This document shows positions 5,890-54,138 of a DNA stretch of 64,000 nt, one piece after another. The position numbers and the translations under genes were made by a program. The notes beneath the pieces are model-generated. The model saw only the letters and a program-made list of their open reading frames with translations. It made no database searches and had not been told where the DNA came from. Positions within the stretch are counted from its first letter, which is position 1. Each line of letters opens with the position of its first letter. Location: positions 1,688 through 65,687 of the forward strand of contig JABIEQ010000010.1 in NCBI GenBank assembly GCA_018651085.1, given 5' to 3'. Source of the DNA: Candidatus Magasanikiibacteriota bacterium (GTDB lineage Bacteria > Patescibacteriota > Patescibacteriia > Magasanikbacterales > UBA922).

Positions 5890-5964
<75 letters not shown>

Positions 5965-18839: not shown

Positions 18840-19140
18840 ATGTGTAGCCTTTTTTTTCTTTATTTTTGGCATTTAAAAAAAGTATAGACTAGTCTATACT
18901 TTCATTTATTTGGTTGATTTATCCCCATTTTAGGGGAGTTTTACACAGAGTTATCCACAATGTATAGATTAGTCTATACAAATAGCCGATATATACTGTG
19001 AATATATCGTGTATAGCTTCTTTTGTTCCTGTTTATTTCTTGGGGATAGCTCTTTTTTCTCTTGTTTTCCACAGTCTTAGGTGGTTTTACACAGATTTAT
19101 CCCCTTTTGTAGAGAGTAGTGTATACAAACAGAGTTTTGC
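18840..19140. promoter_or_regulatory. cluster of DnaA-box-like 9-mers and 16-bp palindromes; candidate oriC or DnaA-regulated/titration locus
   Basis: TTATCCACA perfect at 18951-59. TTATCCCCA at 18919-27. TTATCCCCT at 19097-105. TTTTCCACA at 19065-73. gttttacacag appears twice, each adjacent to a box. Palindromes TATAGACTAGTCTATA (18883) and TATAGATTAGTCTATA (18963). AT tract at 18850-18880. Confidence 0.4.
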
Positions 19141-19189
19141 TCTTTTTTTATTGGAGGTATTTTTGTATACTATTGATATCTATTTTTAT

Positions 19190-19606
19190 ATGTCTATTCG
19201 ATTTTTTTTGGCGACAAAGGCTTTTATCTCTTATCAAGGGCAAATTCTGGTTCTTCGTGAATCCCCCTCTTATGAAGATACGAGCAATACTGGTTTTTAT
19301 GATGTGGTCGGCGGTCGGTTAGATCCCGGAGAACACTTCGGTGATGCCCTTACTAGAGAGGTATACGAGGAAACTGGATTAAAAGTAACGATGGGTCGTC
19401 CCTTTTTTGTGAATGAGTGGAGACCTGTGGTTCGAGGAGAACAATGGCACATCGTAGGTATATTTTTTGCCTGTGAGGCTGATAATCAGACTGTTGTGCT
19501 AAGTAAGGACCACGATGATTATAAATGGATTGATCCTAAAGAGTATAAACAAGAACACATTATAGAAAATTTGTCCTTTGCCTTTGATGCATATCTTACT
19601 CGTTAG
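19190..19606 (+). CDS. NUDIX hydrolase
   Basis: Nudix box GGRLDPGEHFGDALTREVYEETGL. Start set at ATG 19190. The ORF track 5' extension 18998-19189 is non-protein-like. Confidence 0.8.
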   Translation: MSIRFFLATKAFISYQGQILVLRESPSYEDTSNTGFYDVVGGRLDPGEHFGDALTREVYEETGLKVTMGRPFFVNEWRPVVRGEQWHIVGIFFACEADNQTVVLSKDHDDYKWIDPKEYKQEHIIENLSFAFDAYLTR

Positions 19607-19614
19607 CCTGTCTT

Positions 19615-20622
19615 ATGTCTGAATCCCCTTTGTATGAGCCTGTCCATACACAGCACCCTGTTCGAACAGGAGTGCTTTTTGTTGTGGTTAGCATTTTTGT
19701 TGTAGCTATTGTGATAGCTTTTTGGTGGTGGCAGTCTTATGGATTTACCTTTTCTCGTGCTACAGATCTACGACAAGATATTTTGTTACAAGAGGAAGAT
19801 GATACATTCGCTCGTTTACTTGATGGTAAATCAGTGGAATCTCCACAGATTCAAGATGTGCTTGAGGGGATTCCCGATATATCTGACATGCAATATGTGT
19901 TAACTCCAAACAGTGGATGGGAAACATATTTTCCATCTAATGCTCCGACACTGTTGTTAGGAAAAACTCGTTCAGAGGTTCGACAAACATTAGGAGAGCC
20001 TCCTGTATTGCTACGTCAACATACAAATGAATCAATTGAAGAAGATTGGGTGTATTTTCCATACCTGAATGATCCTACTGGGCTTTATATAGATTTTTCT
20101 TCTGGTATTGTTATAAGTAGTAAACTTGATGAGTATAGTGGTTTAAGTAGTCTTGGTGTGGTAGATACATCAGAAGTTGCAGCTGATTACCCTTCGTCTT
20201 TTGATGCTGTGCTTGATTTTGGAGCTGAAAGAACCGTTAGCTCAACATTTTTTAGTCTTTCACCTTCTAGTATTACTGATGTGAAAAAATTTGTGGGTGA
20301 TGGAACTCGCATTCATGAGTTTACTGTTATACAAACGAGAGAAGTTGATTTAAATCGTAGTGTTGGTGGGAGTATTGAACGACTGTATGTCTCTGTGTCC
20401 TTTTACGAAGTTGAAGGAGATGTAGTTTATGAAACAGTATTGTTTGATCCGCAAATTGCTGCATTACAAATTGAAAATGTATCAGTAAACAATGGGAAAA
20501 TGGTTGTGTCTGTGTCTGATTATGAAGACTATGATGATGTTAGTAACAGCACTGTGTTTCGATATACATATGTCCTTTCTTTTTTGGAACAAGAAGTATT
20601 ATTTATAGAAAAAAAAGGATAA
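19615..20622 (+). CDS. hypothetical membrane-anchored extracytoplasmic protein
   Basis: N-terminal TM VLFVVVSIFVVAIVIAFWWW followed by 290 aa of Ser/Asp/Val-rich sequence. No family recognised. Confidence 0.6.
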   Translation: MSESPLYEPVHTQHPVRTGVLFVVVSIFVVAIVIAFWWWQSYGFTFSRATDLRQDILLQEEDDTFARLLDGKSVESPQIQDVLEGIPDISDMQYVLTPNSGWETYFPSNAPTLLLGKTRSEVRQTLGEPPVLLRQHTNESIEEDWVYFPYLNDPTGLYIDFSSGIVISSKLDEYSGLSSLGVVDTSEVAADYPSSFDAVLDFGAERTVSSTFFSLSPSSITDVKKFVGDGTRIHEFTVIQTREVDLNRSVGGSIERLYVSVSFYEVEGDVVYETVLFDPQIAALQIENVSVNNGKMVVSVSDYEDYDDVSNSTVFRYTYVLSFLEQEVLFIEKKG

Positions 20623-20637: not shown

Positions 20638-20666
20638 TTGACAAACGGTGATTTTTTTGCTATACT
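20638..20666 (+). promoter_or_regulatory. sigma70-like promoter TTGACA-N17-TATACT upstream of the 864-aa charged protein gene
   Basis: ttgacaaacggtgatttttttgctatact. ATG at 20734. Confidence 0.4.
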
Positions 20667-20733: not shown

Positions 20734-23328
20734 ATGATCTCATGCTTGGAGGGTTCTCACACCCAAACATCTCATTTTTCTTTTATTTATCGTTGTCTGT
20801 TTGCAGGAATTGTATTTTCAATTGCTGTTTTTTTATTTTTACCTGGTATTTCTTTCGCTGCTGAAGAAGATTTTTCTGATGCTGTTATAGAAGATGCTAT
20901 TATTGATCATGAAGACTTGGGGGTTGAAGCGCCAACAGTTCTCCCTGATCAAAAAGTACGATATGGATTTAAACGATTTGGCCGATTTTTTCAAAAAACA
21001 CTCGCTACTGGCGAAAAGAAACAAGAACTTATTGAACAATTCGCTAATCAAGAACTTGCAGATGCCTCTTTGCTTCTTGAACAAAAAAATACTGAAGGGC
21101 GTGCTGTTAATGCTGCTGTAAAGGCTATTAAACGGGCACAAAAACAATTAGAGAACGTTGAAGTGAAAAATCCAGAGGCTGCAGGAAAGTTTCTTGGACA
21201 TGAAGTAGTTCGTCAAAAAGTATATGATCGTGTTCAAAGACAGTTACTTGATCATGCTCCTGCTGATGTAATTGATGATGCCTTTGAAAGCATTGTTAAT
21301 GCTAAAAAAGAAGCTGCAGAGTACGCAGCTCAAACACTTGGTTCAATTGAAGATCAAGAAGGACTACTTGAAGAAGTAGGACTTGTACTTGAAGATGCAA
21401 AAGGAAGTTCACTTAATGCATTTAAACAAGCTGAAGCGTTACAGTTTTTTGAAGATCATGCCTCTAAAAATAGGCGTGATTTTTTTGATAAAGCAAAAAA
21501 ACGTACTCTTGAACGGTTTGCTGAAAATATTCATGATGAGTTTGTAGGGGGAAATCGTGATATCGTTGATAGGTTTGAGCAGTATGCAAAAGAAATTCCA
21601 GGAGACGAGACAATCCATCTTGAAATTTTTGATACGTTGAAAACTGGTCTTGAAGAATATGATTTTCCAGAAGAAGTGCGAGGGAAAATTGAACAATGGA
21701 AAGATATTTCTGCAAGACGTCATGAACAGGATGCTGAACGTGCGGAAGACCGGTTTGGTGATGATATTGCACATAAAATTTATGAGCGTCGTTTAGAACG
21801 TTTCTCTGACTTAGGTAAAGAAGAAGTAGATGTGTCACGATTTCGTGTGCTTGAAGAACTTCGAACGAGAACTTCTGGAGAAGAAGGAAGAGTACATGCT
21901 GTGGTGCAAGCAGAGCATAAAAAAATGGCAGCAAAATTTAAAGCACAATTTACAGATGAAGGATCACAAAAACTTGCCGATAAGTTTCTTGAACTTTCTA
22001 AAAATCCTGATCCAACATCATTTGCTATTATTAAAGAGCTTGAAAAACAGTTAACTCCAGAACAACGAAAATTTGTTGATGCACTTGACCAACAATTAAA
22101 GCATGAACTTGTGCAACAACGAGCAGAACATGGGGCTTTGTTTGAAGATAAGTTTTTTTCTAATCTTCCTGAACATCAAGATATTTTGCAAGGGTTAGAA
22201 CGAGATTTTCGTGATCATCGTGAAGACTTTTTAGGACCAGCTGACTTATTTGCTTCTTTTGATGGACAAGAACCTCTTCCATTTGTTCAACGACCAGGGC
22301 AACTTGATCAATTTTTTCAAAAAGCATCTTTTGATCAGCAAGTTCGTATTCGACGTGAGCTTGAATCAATTGATGATCCTGAAGCATTTGATCATTTTCA
22401 AGGAAAGTTTGAAGGATTTGAAAATATTCCACCTGAATTTCAATTTTTACAAGGTACTTTTGATGTGAAACGTCGTCAAATTGAAGAACGTCGTCTTCAA
22501 GATAAAGAGGAAGAACATTCAAGAGATACTGAACAAGCTTTTGAAGTTCTTGAAGAAGAATATCGTCAAAAAATTGAGGGTGTTTTAGAAAAAGATCGTG
22601 AAGCTTTTGAACGTCAATTTAATGAAAAACGTAATAACTTGAAGGAACGAGAATTAAAGAATAGACAAGAGTTGTTTGAAGAACGAATTGGAGATAGATC
22701 ATCATTTGATCCATTTTGTGATGAACGTTGTCAAAAAGAGGAAGAACTTTTTATTAGACAACGGTTTGAACAAAATATTGATAATGATAGACGTCGTTTT
22801 GAAGAGGATCAAGATTTTTTTAGACTAGAAAGAGAGAGCCTTGGAGATTTTAATCGGTTATCTGATCAAGATAATGCTTTATTTGAAACACGAAAACGTG
22901 ATGGTACTGAAGGTCCAATTGTTGATCGTCATCAGATTATTAATATCCGAAAATCACCGTCGTCCTCTAGAGGTAGATTAGATCAAAGAGATTCAGATCG
23001 ACATCTCAACTCAGAGTTTGAGCCACCTCGTGATTTTTCAAATCTTCCTTCTAAATCGGAGCTTGAAAGACGGGGTGAATTTAAACAACCAACAGTTGAA
23101 GATCGCCGTGATGAATTTAAACAACCGAGGTTTGAAGATCGTCGCGATGAATTTAAACCAAAAGAACCATTAAGTAATGGTGATACTCGTTCAAAGGTAG
23201 ATTTTAATTTACCTGTGAACCCTCCAAAATTTGAACATAATACCACTGAAAACAAAGATCTTTTTGAAAGAGAGAAGCTAGAAGACGTTAATAGGCCCGA
23301 CTTTGGAGATTCGTTTAAAGGATTTTAA
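20734..23328 (+). CDS. large secreted, extremely charged (E/R/D/K/F/Q-rich) low-complexity protein with C-terminal tandem repeats
   Basis: 864 aa. N-terminal signal-like FAGIVFSIAVFLFLPGISFAAEE. Long runs such as EERRLQDKEEEHSRDTEQAFEVLEEEYRQKIEG. Three tandem EDRRDEFKQP repeats near the C-terminus. Confidence 0.7.
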   Translation: MISCLEGSHTQTSHFSFIYRCLFAGIVFSIAVFLFLPGISFAAEEDFSDAVIEDAIIDHEDLGVEAPTVLPDQKVRYGFKRFGRFFQKTLATGEKKQELIEQFANQELADASLLLEQKNTEGRAVNAAVKAIKRAQKQLENVEVKNPEAAGKFLGHEVVRQKVYDRVQRQLLDHAPADVIDDAFESIVNAKKEAAEYAAQTLGSIEDQEGLLEEVGLVLEDAKGSSLNAFKQAEALQFFEDHASKNRRDFFDKAKKRTLERFAENIHDEFVGGNRDIVDRFEQYAKEIPGDETIHLEIFDTLKTGLEEYDFPEEVRGKIEQWKDISARRHEQDAERAEDRFGDDIAHKIYERRLERFSDLGKEEVDVSRFRVLEELRTRTSGEEGRVHAVVQAEHKKMAAKFKAQFTDEGSQKLADKFLELSKNPDPTSFAIIKELEKQLTPEQRKFVDALDQQLKHELVQQRAEHGALFEDKFFSNLPEHQDILQGLERDFRDHREDFLGPADLFASFDGQEPLPFVQRPGQLDQFFQKASFDQQVRIRRELESIDDPEAFDHFQGKFEGFENIPPEFQFLQGTFDVKRRQIEERRLQDKEEEHSRDTEQAFEVLEEEYRQKIEGVLEKDREAFERQFNEKRNNLKERELKNRQELFEERIGDRSSFDPFCDERCQKEEELFIRQRFEQNIDNDRRRFEEDQDFFRLERESLGDFNRLSDQDNALFETRKRDGTEGPIVDRHQIINIRKSPSSSRGRLDQRDSDRHLNSEFEPPRDFSNLPSKSELERRGEFKQPTVEDRRDEFKQPRFEDRRDEFKPKEPLSNGDTRSKVDFNLPVNPPKFEHNTTENKDLFEREKLEDVNRPDFGDSFKGF
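23060..23170 (+). repeat. three imperfect tandem ~33-nt repeats (EDRRDEFKQP units) inside the charged protein gene
   Basis: cggggtgaatttaaacaacc.. / cgccgtgatgaatttaaacaaccg.. / cgtcgcgatgaatttaaacca. Confidence 0.6.
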
Positions 23329-23335
23329 TTATCTT

Positions 23336-23370
23336 TTGCTACGTTCATTATAATGAACGTAGCTTTTTTT
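23336..23370 (+). terminator. intrinsic terminator: 26-bp perfect palindrome GCTACGTTCATTATAATGAACGTAGC plus T7
   Basis: Immediately after the stop at 23328 and ending at the VIT-family gene ATG 23371. Confidence 0.6.
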
Positions 23371-24096
23371 ATGTCAGTCGAACATAACCCTAAATACATT
23401 CATCATGCTGATCCTGTTGATACTTCTTTAATACGTGAAGGGGTGTTTGGTTTGGAAGATGGTATGGTTTCAACACTTGGGGCTGTTACTGGTATTGCAA
23501 CAGCCACGCAAGATTATTTTACGGTTATTTTAGCCGGGTGCGTTGTTATTTCAGTTGAATCCATTGCTATGGCCGTTGGTTCATACCTTTCAAGTAAGTC
23601 TGAAAAAGAGATTGATGAGCGCATGCTTTTTGAAGAGAAACAAGAGATTGCAAAATTTCCTCAGGAAGAACGAGAAGAGTTATATGAAATGTATGTTCAA
23701 GAAGAATGGCCAAAAGAACTTGCTCATAATATGGCTGATGCTGCGTCAGCTAATCCAAAAATAATGCTTCAAGAAATGGCATATAGAGAACTTCAGATTA
23801 TTCCGGATAACTTAGAGCGTCCACTCCATAATGCTGTTATTATGGGAATTTCATATGTTATAGGTGGATCTATTCCTCTTATCCCGTATCTATTTTCCAG
23901 GGATATTTCATTTATTCTCCCTATTTCTATTGGGTTTACTCTTGTTGCTTTATTTGGTCTTGGTGCGCTTACCACAAAATTCTCTAAACGATCTTGGTGG
24001 AAAGCTGGTCTTGAAATGTTTGCTCTTGCGAGTGCTGCCGCTTTTATTGGATATGCTGTGGGGCAAGGTATTGATAAAGTATTTGGGCTTGGGTAA
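23371..24096 (+). CDS. VIT1/CCC1-family (iron/manganese transporter-like) membrane protein
   Basis: REGVFGLEDGMVSTLGAVTGIA is the hallmark VIT-family N-terminal helix. Three further C-terminal TMs. Start set at MSVEHNPKY. Confidence 0.75.
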   Translation: MSVEHNPKYIHHADPVDTSLIREGVFGLEDGMVSTLGAVTGIATATQDYFTVILAGCVVISVESIAMAVGSYLSSKSEKEIDERMLFEEKQEIAKFPQEEREELYEMYVQEEWPKELAHNMADAASANPKIMLQEMAYRELQIIPDNLERPLHNAVIMGISYVIGGSIPLIPYLFSRDISFILPISIGFTLVALFGLGALTTKFSKRSWWKAGLEMFALASAAAFIGYAVGQGIDKVFGLG

Positions 24097-24109: not shown

Positions 24110-24150
24110 TATAAAAAAGAGACTAGTATATACTAGTCTCTTTTATTAAA
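24110..24150. terminator. bidirectional terminator aagagactagtatatactagtctctt
   Basis: Perfect stem between the convergent VIT gene and TrmB paralog. Confidence 0.55.
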
Positions 24151-24897
24151 TAAATGGTCAAAAATGGCATGTTGTTGGTCAGCGATATCTTTGTGTTTTA
24201 TATACACTCCACCAGGAAGTTCTCCTACACTTAAAAATATGACAACATCTTCGTAGATGTATGAAGCGGTATTTGTTTTAAAATCTTTTAGGGTTTTTCT
24301 TTCTCGGAGGTGCTCTGTTTTTTGTAGTGTGTTTGTCGGTTCTTTTTTTAAAGAACTTGGGCAGTCTTCTCCTCTAATAAGTTTTACAGTAATATTTTTT
24401 TTTGCTCTTTTTTCTAGATGTGCATGAAATATGGTACTAATTTCTTCGTTTTCCATGTACACGGAGTATGATTTTAATTCTTTTGGTTCATCAAGGATTA
24501 TTTTTTCTAGAACTTGTCTGATTCCTTGTATGCCTGGATAATTTTTAAAAAATGGGTCATTATTAATTTTACTGTAAGCTGCTTCAAGTGTTCCAAAGTG
24601 TTCTTCGAGTTTTTTTTCTGTCTCTATTAATGCTTTTCTTTTTTTGTAGAGAAATTCTTTGAGATTTTCAGGATGGGTAATAGTGTAGTGGAGCACTTTT
24701 TTTTGTGGATTTTTATAGATGAGCGTATGCTCTTCTAGCCAATCACAAATATTATAGATAGTCCCTTTTTTAAGGGATGTTTTTTTTACGATGTTTGCAA
24801 CCGTTAATTCTTTGTGTTCAAAAATAGTCGTGTACACACGTATTTGTTCTTGTTGCAATCCAAGAGTTTGTAATGTTTCAATAATTTCTTTTTTCAT
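24133..24897 (-). CDS. TrmB-family transcriptional regulator (paralog)
   Basis: N-terminal LGLQQEQIRVYTTIFEHKELTVANIVKKTSLKKGTIYNICDWLEE is a TrmB-type wHTH. Confidence 0.6.
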   Translation of the reverse strand: MKKEIIETLQTLGLQQEQIRVYTTIFEHKELTVANIVKKTSLKKGTIYNICDWLEEHTLIYKNPQKKVLHYTITHPENLKEFLYKKRKALIETEKKLEEHFGTLEAAYSKINNDPFFKNYPGIQGIRQVLEKIILDEPKELKSYSVYMENEEISTIFHAHLEKRAKKNITVKLIRGEDCPSSLKKEPTNTLQKTEHLRERKTLKDFKTNTASYIYEDVVIFLSVGELPGGVYIKHKDIADQQHAIFDHLFNKRD

Positions 24898-31830: not shown

Positions 31831-31913
31831 GGGTCAGTGGTGGAATTGGTATACACGCGAGACTTAAAATCTCGTCCGGTTTCCGGATGCGGGTTCGATT
31901 CCCGCCTGACCCA
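31831..31913 (+). tRNA. tRNA-Leu (anticodon TAA), type II with long variable arm, CCA not encoded
   Basis: Acceptor GGGTCAG/CTGACCC. Anticodon loop cuTAAaa. Variable hairpin ccggtttccgg. T-arm GCGGGTTCGATTCCCGC. Followed by terminator aaaagccccatacggggctttttt. Confidence 0.85.
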
Positions 31914-31942
31914 CAGTAAAAAAGCCCCATACGGGGCTTTTT

Positions 31943-54109: not shown

Positions 54110-54138
54110 TTGACATTTTTTTCGTTTTCCCCTATAAT
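54110..54138 (+). promoter_or_regulatory. perfect consensus sigma70 promoter TTGACA-N17-TATAAT about 360 nt upstream of rpoB
   Basis: ttgacatttttttcgttttcccctataat. Two more TTGACA hexamers at 54069 and 54082. TGTGGATAA at 54009-17. Confidence 0.5.

Follow-up and report, generated by a model that had tools for sequence, protein, structure and literature searches.

A Long-Form DUF5667 Protein from a Magasanikbacteria Genome, a Candidate Exported Envelope Scaffold

Long-form DUF5667 proteins, among them a 1013-amino-acid (aa) protein given that name by NCBI (P0002) and a 964-aa protein (P0005), share an architecture that leads from a signal peptide, through a PFCDExC motif, to a disordered tail. 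Short-form DUF5667 proteins (300-550 aa) are widespread in Patescibacteria metagenomes. The gene described here lies on the forward strand at positions 20734-23328 of a 64,000-nucleotide (nt) stretch of DNA from Candidatus Magasanikiibacteriota bacterium (GenBank assembly GCA_018651085.1, contig JABIEQ010000010.1, positions 1,688 to 65,687), the whole of which is referred to as the window. It encodes an 864-aa protein of the long-form architecture, for which P0005 is the best match. Since homologues of the same architecture were already deposited as 'DUF5667 domain-containing protein', it is a diverged member of a catalogued family, and no new kind of system. The best overall explanation, to which a probability of about one half can be given, is that this long-form DUF5667 protein is an abundant extracellular envelope scaffold. 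The statements of identity, namely, that the gene is genuine and that its product is an exported, acidic, helical DUF5667 protein, can be made with high confidence, and the scaffold role as such is put forward tentatively, at somewhat less than even odds.

The window protein is 29-37 % identical to the other long forms over ~80-95 % of the length, and has the YchF/VIT1/methyltransferase neighbourhood, the acidity, and the type of promoter in common with them. It is shorter, carries a more diverged DUF5667 signature, has neither the long acidic/Pro-rich linker that follows the signal peptide nor the hydrophobic C-terminal peptide (present in 11/40 long forms), and bears a 12-aa tail repeat of its own; its locus has a NUDIX gene and an orphan open reading frame (ORFan) upstream, not YchF. 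The short forms share the signal peptide with its AQ motif and the first ~280 residues (aa 45-320 of the window protein). Unlike the window protein, they end in a globular C-terminal effector domain (Kazal in 21/45) and vary in charge, and the central and C-terminal helical regions, the CxxxC motif, and the tail are all missing from them. As structural neighbours, the confident N-terminal model has only alpha-solenoid and other helical-repeat proteins (designed helical repeats, 14-3-3, and TPR), which are likewise built from stacked helical hairpins; with TM-scores of 0.2-0.37 and none at E<1e-3, this is a generic resemblance that provides no evidence of homology. By functional analogy, the protein may be compared with the surface-coat or S-layer proteins of Gram-positive bacteria, which are likewise exported, acidic, large, fast-evolving, and encoded by one gene per genome. 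S-layer genes generally have a strong promoter, a leader, and a terminator, and the window gene has a very strong promoter with a predicted leader, and a strong terminator-like hairpin.

Identity, relatives, and distribution

An exhaustive phmmer search against 1.84 billion representative proteins returned 251 clusters at E<=1e-3, 119 at E<=1e-10, and 37 at E<=1e-30 (E values of 1.6e-86 to 1e-30 for these 37). The best match was 37 % identical across residues 11-835, and the long homologues aligned across residues ~45-700 of the query. A tblastn scan of one genome per species recovered 24 genomic loci from 24 assemblies (E values of 4e-98 to 2e-39), and tblastn found no match to the protein among phage records. 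The GC contents of the three codon positions (0.617/0.321/0.148) are of the coding type. Five antisense open reading frames (ORFs) of 90-156 aa lie over the coding sequence, none with a family match; for the longest, tblastn returned nothing from the related loci, of which 22 were matched by the sense fragment covering that span. The homologues, the conserved sense frame, the coding-type codon positions, and the unconserved antisense ORFs thus indicate that this ATG-initiated frame is a genuine gene in a tiny-genome Magasanikbacteria bacterium of the candidate phyla radiation (CPR). An earlier note, made from the letters of the window, had given the coordinates correctly, and its proposal that the frame is a genuine gene, whose product a small-genome bacterium exports, is supported by these results. 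The outcome that it named as fatal, a composition-driven artefact (for example, with a better-conserved overlapping gene), is excluded. An open frame arising by composition in AT-rich DNA might be suspected from the biased composition and from the lack of a Pfam match above threshold for the full-length sequence; however, hundreds of homologues conserved over ~650 residues, a confident fold prediction, the sense-strand matches in 22 loci against none for the longest antisense ORF, and a conserved promoter ahead of the orthologues leave this explanation with practically no probability.

The E/R/D/F-rich, highly charged composition noted earlier was borne out (E 13.2, R 9.0, D 8.9, F 8.8, L 7.9, and K 6.9 %; D+E+K+R = 38 %), with a net charge of -53, a pI of 4.95, and a mass of ~97 kDa. 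The accompanying term "low-complexity" was overstated. The mean Shannon entropy in 40-aa windows (3.53 bits) is near that of five ordinary neighbour genes (3.6-3.8), residues ~45-700 are conserved and predicted to be folded, and only residues ~724-864 appear disordered and variable. Judged from the alignments and models, most of the protein is conserved, foldable helical sequence. Its strongly acidic character is conserved in the orthologues: all 40 long forms examined are acidic (net charge -16 to -113, median -53.5; pI 4.36-5.53), with Phe contents of 5.9-11.5 %. The pI of the short forms ranges from 4.05 to 9.9.

Scans of the full protein against Pfam, NCBIfam, PHROGs, and PADLOC gave nothing above threshold, and the full-length sequence had no match to the DUF5667 profile (PF18915, gathering score 27 bits) at E<=0.1. 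With residues 48-189 excised, aa 76-148 (20959-21177) matched profile positions 8-77 of 99 with 22.4 bits (E 1.7e-4), short of the gathering score. The profile is passed by 36/40 long forms and 44/45 short forms, and a profile built from the 45 short forms matched the window protein at 224 bits. The family signature, DLG...LP....Y..K...R....F....KK....AN..L..A, was found after the signal peptide, its core (LPxxxxYxxKRxxR...KK...AN) falling within the DUF5667 module. Residues D61, L62, G63, L70, Y77, K80, R84, K95, K96, A104, N105, A109, and A111 are invariant in alignment A1, and mostly conserved at >=90 % in alignment A2, which holds the 40 long homologues. The window copy has a one-residue insertion (LPDQKVRY versus LPDSPFY), and lacks the conserved F at position 92 (ATGE in place of TFNP). 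Because homologues that pass PF18915 align across the domain, the 864-aa protein is placed by homology, rather than by its direct Pfam score, as a diverged member of the DUF5667 family, and the earlier statement that it has no recognisable domain was wrong. A literature search across 8.3 million papers found no mention of DUF5667, PF18915, or IPR043725, and nothing relevant on Patescibacteria together with Kazal.

The long forms (700-1150 aa) align over residues ~45-700, and the shorter proteins (300-550 aa) over only ~45-320. Of 45 short forms, 21 carry a Kazal C-terminus, two carry DUF333, and one a cupredoxin domain; Kazal domains (PF00050/PF07648) were found in neither the window protein nor the 40 long forms. 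Since the short forms align over the N-terminal part only and continue into varied domains, the first ~280 residues are, on these alignments, a module common to exported proteins with differing C-terminal parts. Word-indexed profile searches yielded few matches, as charged low-information words saturated the candidates, and reconfirmed only the Kazal and DUF333 partners. The window protein shows each feature of the long-form group: the NPDPTxF region, PFCDExC, an acidic pI, a disordered tail, and at most one matched locus per assembly. No paralogue of the gene lies within the 64-kb window.

The protein's own cluster is named 'hypothetical protein [Candidatus Magasanikbacteria bacterium]', and 13 contigs, of up to 863 kb in length, carry the identical sequence. 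NCBI taxonomy places the phylum within the Parcubacteria group of Patescibacteria. The 24 loci, one matched locus per assembly, come from Magasanikbacteria or unspecified Patescibacteria/Parcubacteria metagenome-assembled genomes (MAGs), and the long-form orthologous group appears, as far as sampled, to be confined to Magasanikbacteria and close Patescibacteria. The long-form protein is only ~30 % identical between loci, and its neighbours are far better conserved (VIT1 53-60 %, methyltransferase 40-47 %, RuvB 67-70 %), from which it is concluded that the protein evolves fast. As a separate observation, 13 MAG records that carry the long-form gene (L006, L009-L011, L014, L016, L017, L019-L021, L024, L026, and L027) are titled 'uncultured Gammaproteobacteria bacterium'; at least four of them (L009, L014, L024, and L027) show the Magasanikbacteria gene order, and one is a 1.23-Mb chromosome. 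These titles look like mislabels or placeholders.

Export signal and predicted fold

The signal-like N-terminus reported earlier was confirmed, and can be described more closely. The predicted signal peptide (aa 1-42; 20734-20859) consists of an n-region, an h-region of ~22-25 aa, and the sequence PGISFA|A; the hydrophobic stretch spans aa ~17-41 and ends in SFA|A, which places S at -3 and A at -1 of a predicted signal peptidase I site. The site is of the AxA|Q type conserved in the family, with A42 and the following Q conserved at >=90 % among the 40 long homologues, all of which have exactly one N-terminal hydrophobic segment ending in AxA|Q. The 864-aa protein has neither a lipobox Cys nor a second hydrophobic segment. 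Export by Sec with cleavage after A42 by signal peptidase I is inferred from these motifs, and the mature protein is predicted to begin AEEDFSDAVIEDAIIDHEDLGVEAPTVLPDQK.

The full-length AlphaFold2 (AF2) model is all-alpha with a disordered tail. The N-terminal domain (aa 43-345; 20860-21768), modelled from a 25-sequence alignment, is predicted with confidence (predicted local distance difference test score (pLDDT) 91.5; predicted TM-score (pTM) 0.88) to form an alpha-solenoid-like helical repeat of 11 main helices and two short N-terminal ones. No match at E<1e-3 was found when this model was compared by Foldseek with 350,542 PDB chains or with BFVD, or when the full-length model was compared with the PDB. 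The best Foldseek matches were de novo designed helical-repeat proteins (TM 0.3-0.37), followed by 14-3-3 and TPR proteins. PDB searches with the long-form and DUF5667 profiles gave only designed repeats or coiled coils, and V-ATPase subunit G at E 0.19. The models are thus consistent with a helical-repeat fold that has no solved structural relative among the libraries compared.

A second conserved helical region follows (aa 346-560; 21769-22413), with conservation of 0.49-0.75 per 30-aa block in A2; the block containing NPDPTSFxxxxELE (aa 421-450) is the most conserved, at 0.75, and the region has a pLDDT of 50-70 in the full-length model. It weakly resembles the repeats that precede it; pairwise hhalign comparisons among four segments gave probabilities of only 41-47 %, and ~65-aa internal helical repeats are therefore suggested by the sequence rather than proven. 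Three long charged helices of 48, 35, and 59 residues (aa 567-614, 619-653, and 664-722) are predicted in the next segment (aa 567-722; 22432-22899), with a pLDDT of ~70-87 over aa 571-690 that drops at both ends of the segment. Occupancy in A2 stays at >=0.84 up to residue ~630 and at >=0.77 up to residue ~690, and per-column conservation falls gradually past ~570. Just before the last helix lies the CxxxC motif PFCDERC (aa 660-666; 22711-22731), which occurs as P[FWY]C[DENQ]xxC in 25/40 long forms; the window protein has four Cys in all, two of them in the mature part.

The C-terminal tail (aa 724-864; 22903-23325) is charged and rich in F and P, is predicted to be disordered (pLDDT ~31), and shows low alignment occupancy and low conservation. 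Pooled orthologue tails contain P 15.8, E 9.5, G 9.5, Q 8.8, F 7.8, R 7.6, and D 7.6 %. The earlier note had described three tandem EDRRDEFKQP repeats. A tandem repeat is indeed present at 23076-23158, and its number and unit were revised to 2.3 copies of 36 nt (12 aa), GEFKQPTVEDRR / DEFKQPRFEDRR / DEFKPKEP (Tandem Repeats Finder score 124, 87 % matches), with a degenerate first copy (ERRGEFKQP). Orthologue tails carry differing, lineage-specific short repeats, of which this is one. The comparison of repeat copy number across strains proposed in that note was made among near-identical strains and revealed no variation, the three full-length variants all having 864 aa. In 11 of the 40 long forms (P0007, P0008, P0011, P0019, P0026, and others), the protein ends in a hydrophobic or amphipathic peptide of ~20 residues (...ILSSFFGLANVFASVGF, ...LTSFFGLDDALASVGW), which could be an anchor or sorting signal.

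Promoter, hairpin, and gene neighbourhood

The gene is preceded by the sigma-70-type promoter TTGACA-17-TATACT (20638-20666, forward strand; 11/12 match), with an extended -10 element formed by a TG (20658-20659) two bases 5' of the -10 hexamer. This promoter predicts a 5' leader of ~60 nt. The element had been pointed out in the earlier note; taken alone, it means little, as the window contains seven promoter-like sites of >=11/12 against 4.0 +/- 2.0 in shuffles, barely above chance. A >=11/12 promoter with TG was found, however, within 200 nt upstream of the long-form gene at 11/25 loci (the window and 10 others), four of them with the perfect 12/12 sequence TTGACA-17-TGnTATAAT. As ~4 sites are expected per 128 kb of shuffled sequence, or ~0.006 per 200 nt before TG is required, this recurrence cannot be chance, and the gene is served by a conserved near-consensus promoter of its own. 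Elsewhere in the window, further near-consensus sigma-70 promoters were seen at 54110-54138 (forward strand, perfect 12/12), 18817-18789 (reverse strand, upstream of DksA-like and signal peptidase II genes), and 6723-6695 (reverse strand).

The palindrome reported downstream is likewise present. A perfect 26-nt palindrome (23338-23363) begins ten bases past the stop codon, and forms a terminator-like hairpin (23338-23370) with an 11-bp stem, a 4-nt loop, and an energy of ~-14.7 kcal/mol, followed by T7. The hairpin, which separates the gene from that of a VIT1-family Fe2+/Mn2+ transporter, probably acts as a terminator or attenuator. The VIT1 gene lies directly downstream (23353-24096, forward strand; PF01988, E 2.9e-55), and the hairpin overlaps the first ATG of its ORF (23353). 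Because the similarity to other VIT1 proteins begins at residue 7, the true start is probably the ATG at 23371, which abuts the T-run. In the window, VIT1 has no promoter-like site of its own ahead of it, and for this reason may be expressed by read-through from the long-form gene.

VIT1 is the next gene on the same strand in the window and at 10/24 other loci, the gaps measuring 3-174 nt. Across the lineage, the genes commonly run YchF (+), the long-form gene (+), VIT1 (+), a UPF0020/N6_N4 methyltransferase gene (-), and pilN/pilM/pilC/pilB; in L009, YchF and the methyltransferase gene have changed places on either side, as if the long-form/VIT1 pair had been inverted as one piece. Sequence inspection identified the other genes around the remaining loci as housekeeping genes (S6, SSB, RNase III, NusB, GyrA, EF-P, and XerC/D-like). 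Where YchF lies elsewhere, the window has a NUDIX gene and a 335-aa ORFan, and RuvB is found further downstream. A TrmB/MarR-like helix-turn-helix regulator (24133-24897, reverse strand; PF01978, E 3e-8) lies between VIT1 and the methyltransferase gene. None of the related loci has it there, and a lineage-specific insertion beside the metal transporter gene is therefore suggested.

The 335-aa ORFan (19615-20622, forward strand) has one N-terminal hydrophobic helix and no Pfam, NCBIfam, PHROGs, or PADLOC match. Its 90 % cluster has five members, all from the same organism. The earlier note had drawn attention to the co-location of this membrane-anchored ORFan with the long-form gene. The ORF and its hydrophobic helix are present as described, and a functional partnership was rejected because no relative of the ORFan was found in any of 28 related loci; the co-location thus appears incidental. 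Read from the GTG at 18998, the NUDIX ORF (18998-19606, forward strand; PF00293 in aa 80-184) has a hydrophobic N-terminal extension of ~75 residues, so that either its start is over-called or it encodes a membrane-anchored NUDIX hydrolase. The sole RNA genes detected by Rfam and ARAGORN in the 64 kb are those of tRNA-Cys(GCA) (5890-5964) and tRNA-Leu(TAA) (31831-31914).

Four distant DUF5667 genes had no informative shared neighbours. In L030 (3392-4963) and L033 (3310-4914), a protein of 523-534 aa without a Pfam family, 56 % identical between the two, is encoded directly upstream of the DUF5667 gene, in the order ThrRS, unknown protein, DUF5667 protein, MiaB-like, and MiaA; it is unrelated to the ORFan of the window.

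Proposed role and competing explanations

If the protein is an envelope scaffold, it would be exported by Sec, cut after A42, and released into, or kept in, the envelope zone of a monoderm-type cell. The conserved near-consensus promoter suggests that it would be abundant. Its folded DUF5667 helical-repeat module would serve as a generic exported scaffold or attachment module, and the long acidic helical body, with a sticky, disordered tail rich in F, P, and charged residues, could give rise to a hydrated, polyanionic coat or matrix within the envelope or at the surface. The surface or host-interaction factor and the ion-binding matrix protein suggested in the earlier note would also be compatible with the data. 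Consistent with an envelope role, each assembly has a single matched locus, set among housekeeping genes (YchF, VIT1, methyltransferase, pilus genes, and RuvB), and the fast divergence of the long-form protein is typical of envelope proteins. Export is further favoured by the short forms, about half of which carry Kazal domains, known as extracellular protease-inhibitor modules. The CPR cell envelope itself is acknowledged to be poorly understood, and, like the host interface of these bacteria, has so far been described very little (PMC5220378).

Several points weigh against the scaffold role. No wall-binding or S-layer domain (SLH, LysM, LPXTG, or CWB) was found in Pfam scans of the window protein and 40 homologues, and no LPXTG-type C-terminus was seen in the sequence of the window protein or in the long-form C-termini. 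An all-alpha composition with 38 % charged residues is unlike that of classical S-layer proteins, which are beta-rich and rich in hydrophobic or hydroxyl residues. Cleavage is read from the motif, and the length (~22-25 aa) and unusual conservation of the h-region make an uncleaved membrane anchor a candidate. The strong promoter was found in only 11/25 loci, and codon usage, which speaks neither for nor against high expression, shows no clear sign of translational selection (96 % TTT, GC3 0.148). Secretion, abundance, and location are all inferred, and a more specific role, related to metals, is hinted at by the conserved VIT1 linkage, of which the scaffold explanation makes no use.

That linkage is the basis of the main, though unlikely, alternative, in which the polyanion would be an extracytoplasmic buffer for Fe2+, Mn2+, or Ca2+, binding ions exported by VIT1, with the operon tuned by the hairpin. 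The same-strand VIT1 gene downstream in the window and at 10/24 other loci, the apparent joint inversion of the pair in L009, the lack of a promoter-like site of its own before VIT1 in the window, the strong acidity of all long forms, and the CxxxC motif in 25/40 of them would fit such a buffer. However, VIT1 is missing as a neighbour at 14/24 loci, the linkage lies within a wider block of housekeeping gene order for which common descent explains most, and distant DUF5667 proteins have no VIT1 nearby. Moreover, most of the invariant positions hold F, G, P, K, R, or Y, which are not metal ligands, the Cys pair is absent from 15/40 long forms, and a strong terminator-like hairpin stands between the two genes in the window. 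Considerably less probable is an apolipoprotein-like carrier, whose amphipathic, Phe-rich helices would bind and shuttle host-derived lipids that CPR bacteria cannot make. Fatty-acid synthesis genes are missing from a CPR genome (PMC5220378), and the long forms are all-helical, exported, and rich in Phe (5.9-11.5 %); one short form matches ApoLp-III (E 1.6e-5), and one fragment combines PF01442 with DUF5667. These are only two of >100 relatives, though, and apolipoprotein models attract charged helical sequences. Neither PF07464 nor PF01442 matched the window protein or the 40 long forms, the prediction for the N-terminal domain is that of a well-packed solenoid (pTM 0.88), and Foldseek returned no apolipoprotein.

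An uncleaved signal anchor could instead make the protein an extracytoplasmic sensor or regulator, anti-sigma-like or an inhibitor scaffold by analogy with its Kazal-bearing relatives. The long, conserved h-region (AGIxLLIAVFLF) and the fusion of the N-terminal module to Kazal protease-inhibitor domains in relatives agree with this idea, which is nevertheless very doubtful, as only ~16-20 residues precede the hydrophobic segment, leaving no cytoplasmic domain, and no zf-HC2, sigma-binding region, or adjacent sigma factor was found. The AxA|Q cleavage motif is conserved, and the window protein itself has no Kazal domain. A component of Zorya-type defence was also considered, since aa ~349-466 match DUF2894 (PF11445) at 23.8 bits (cut-off 25), and the PADLOC ZorF model (PDLC00652) matches at E 6e-5 with 21 bits. 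The DUF2894 score lies below the curated cut-off and the match is not shared by the 40 homologues at E<=1e-3, ZorA/ZorB (MotA/B-like) genes are found near neither the window gene nor the related loci, and the protein, unlike ZorF, has a signal peptide; this explanation is effectively refuted.

Returning to the envelope scaffold, a bolder form of the proposal, which is itself improbable, holds that Magasanikbacteria have the long forms as their major envelope or surface-coat protein, in an all-alpha polyanionic layer built on a helical-repeat fold for which no relative has been solved, that DUF5667 is a Patescibacteria-specific exported display module, and that the coat may hold metal ions exported by VIT1. 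The finding is modestly interesting for the helical-repeat fold, the strong promoter recurring across the lineage, the modular use of DUF5667, and the VIT1 linkage. The DUF5667 module is widespread in the CPR radiation, with no structural relative or literature mention found, and the 303-residue domain with its confident predicted fold, the predicted mature N-terminus, and the testable VIT1 linkage make the protein a practical target. If the proposal is correct, the scaffold or attachment module built on DUF5667 would also display Kazal inhibitors and other domains. Predicted to be exported, probably strongly expressed, fast-evolving, and represented by one matched locus in each of the 24 related assemblies, the long-form DUF5667 protein is a reasonable candidate for a main envelope component of one CPR phylum.

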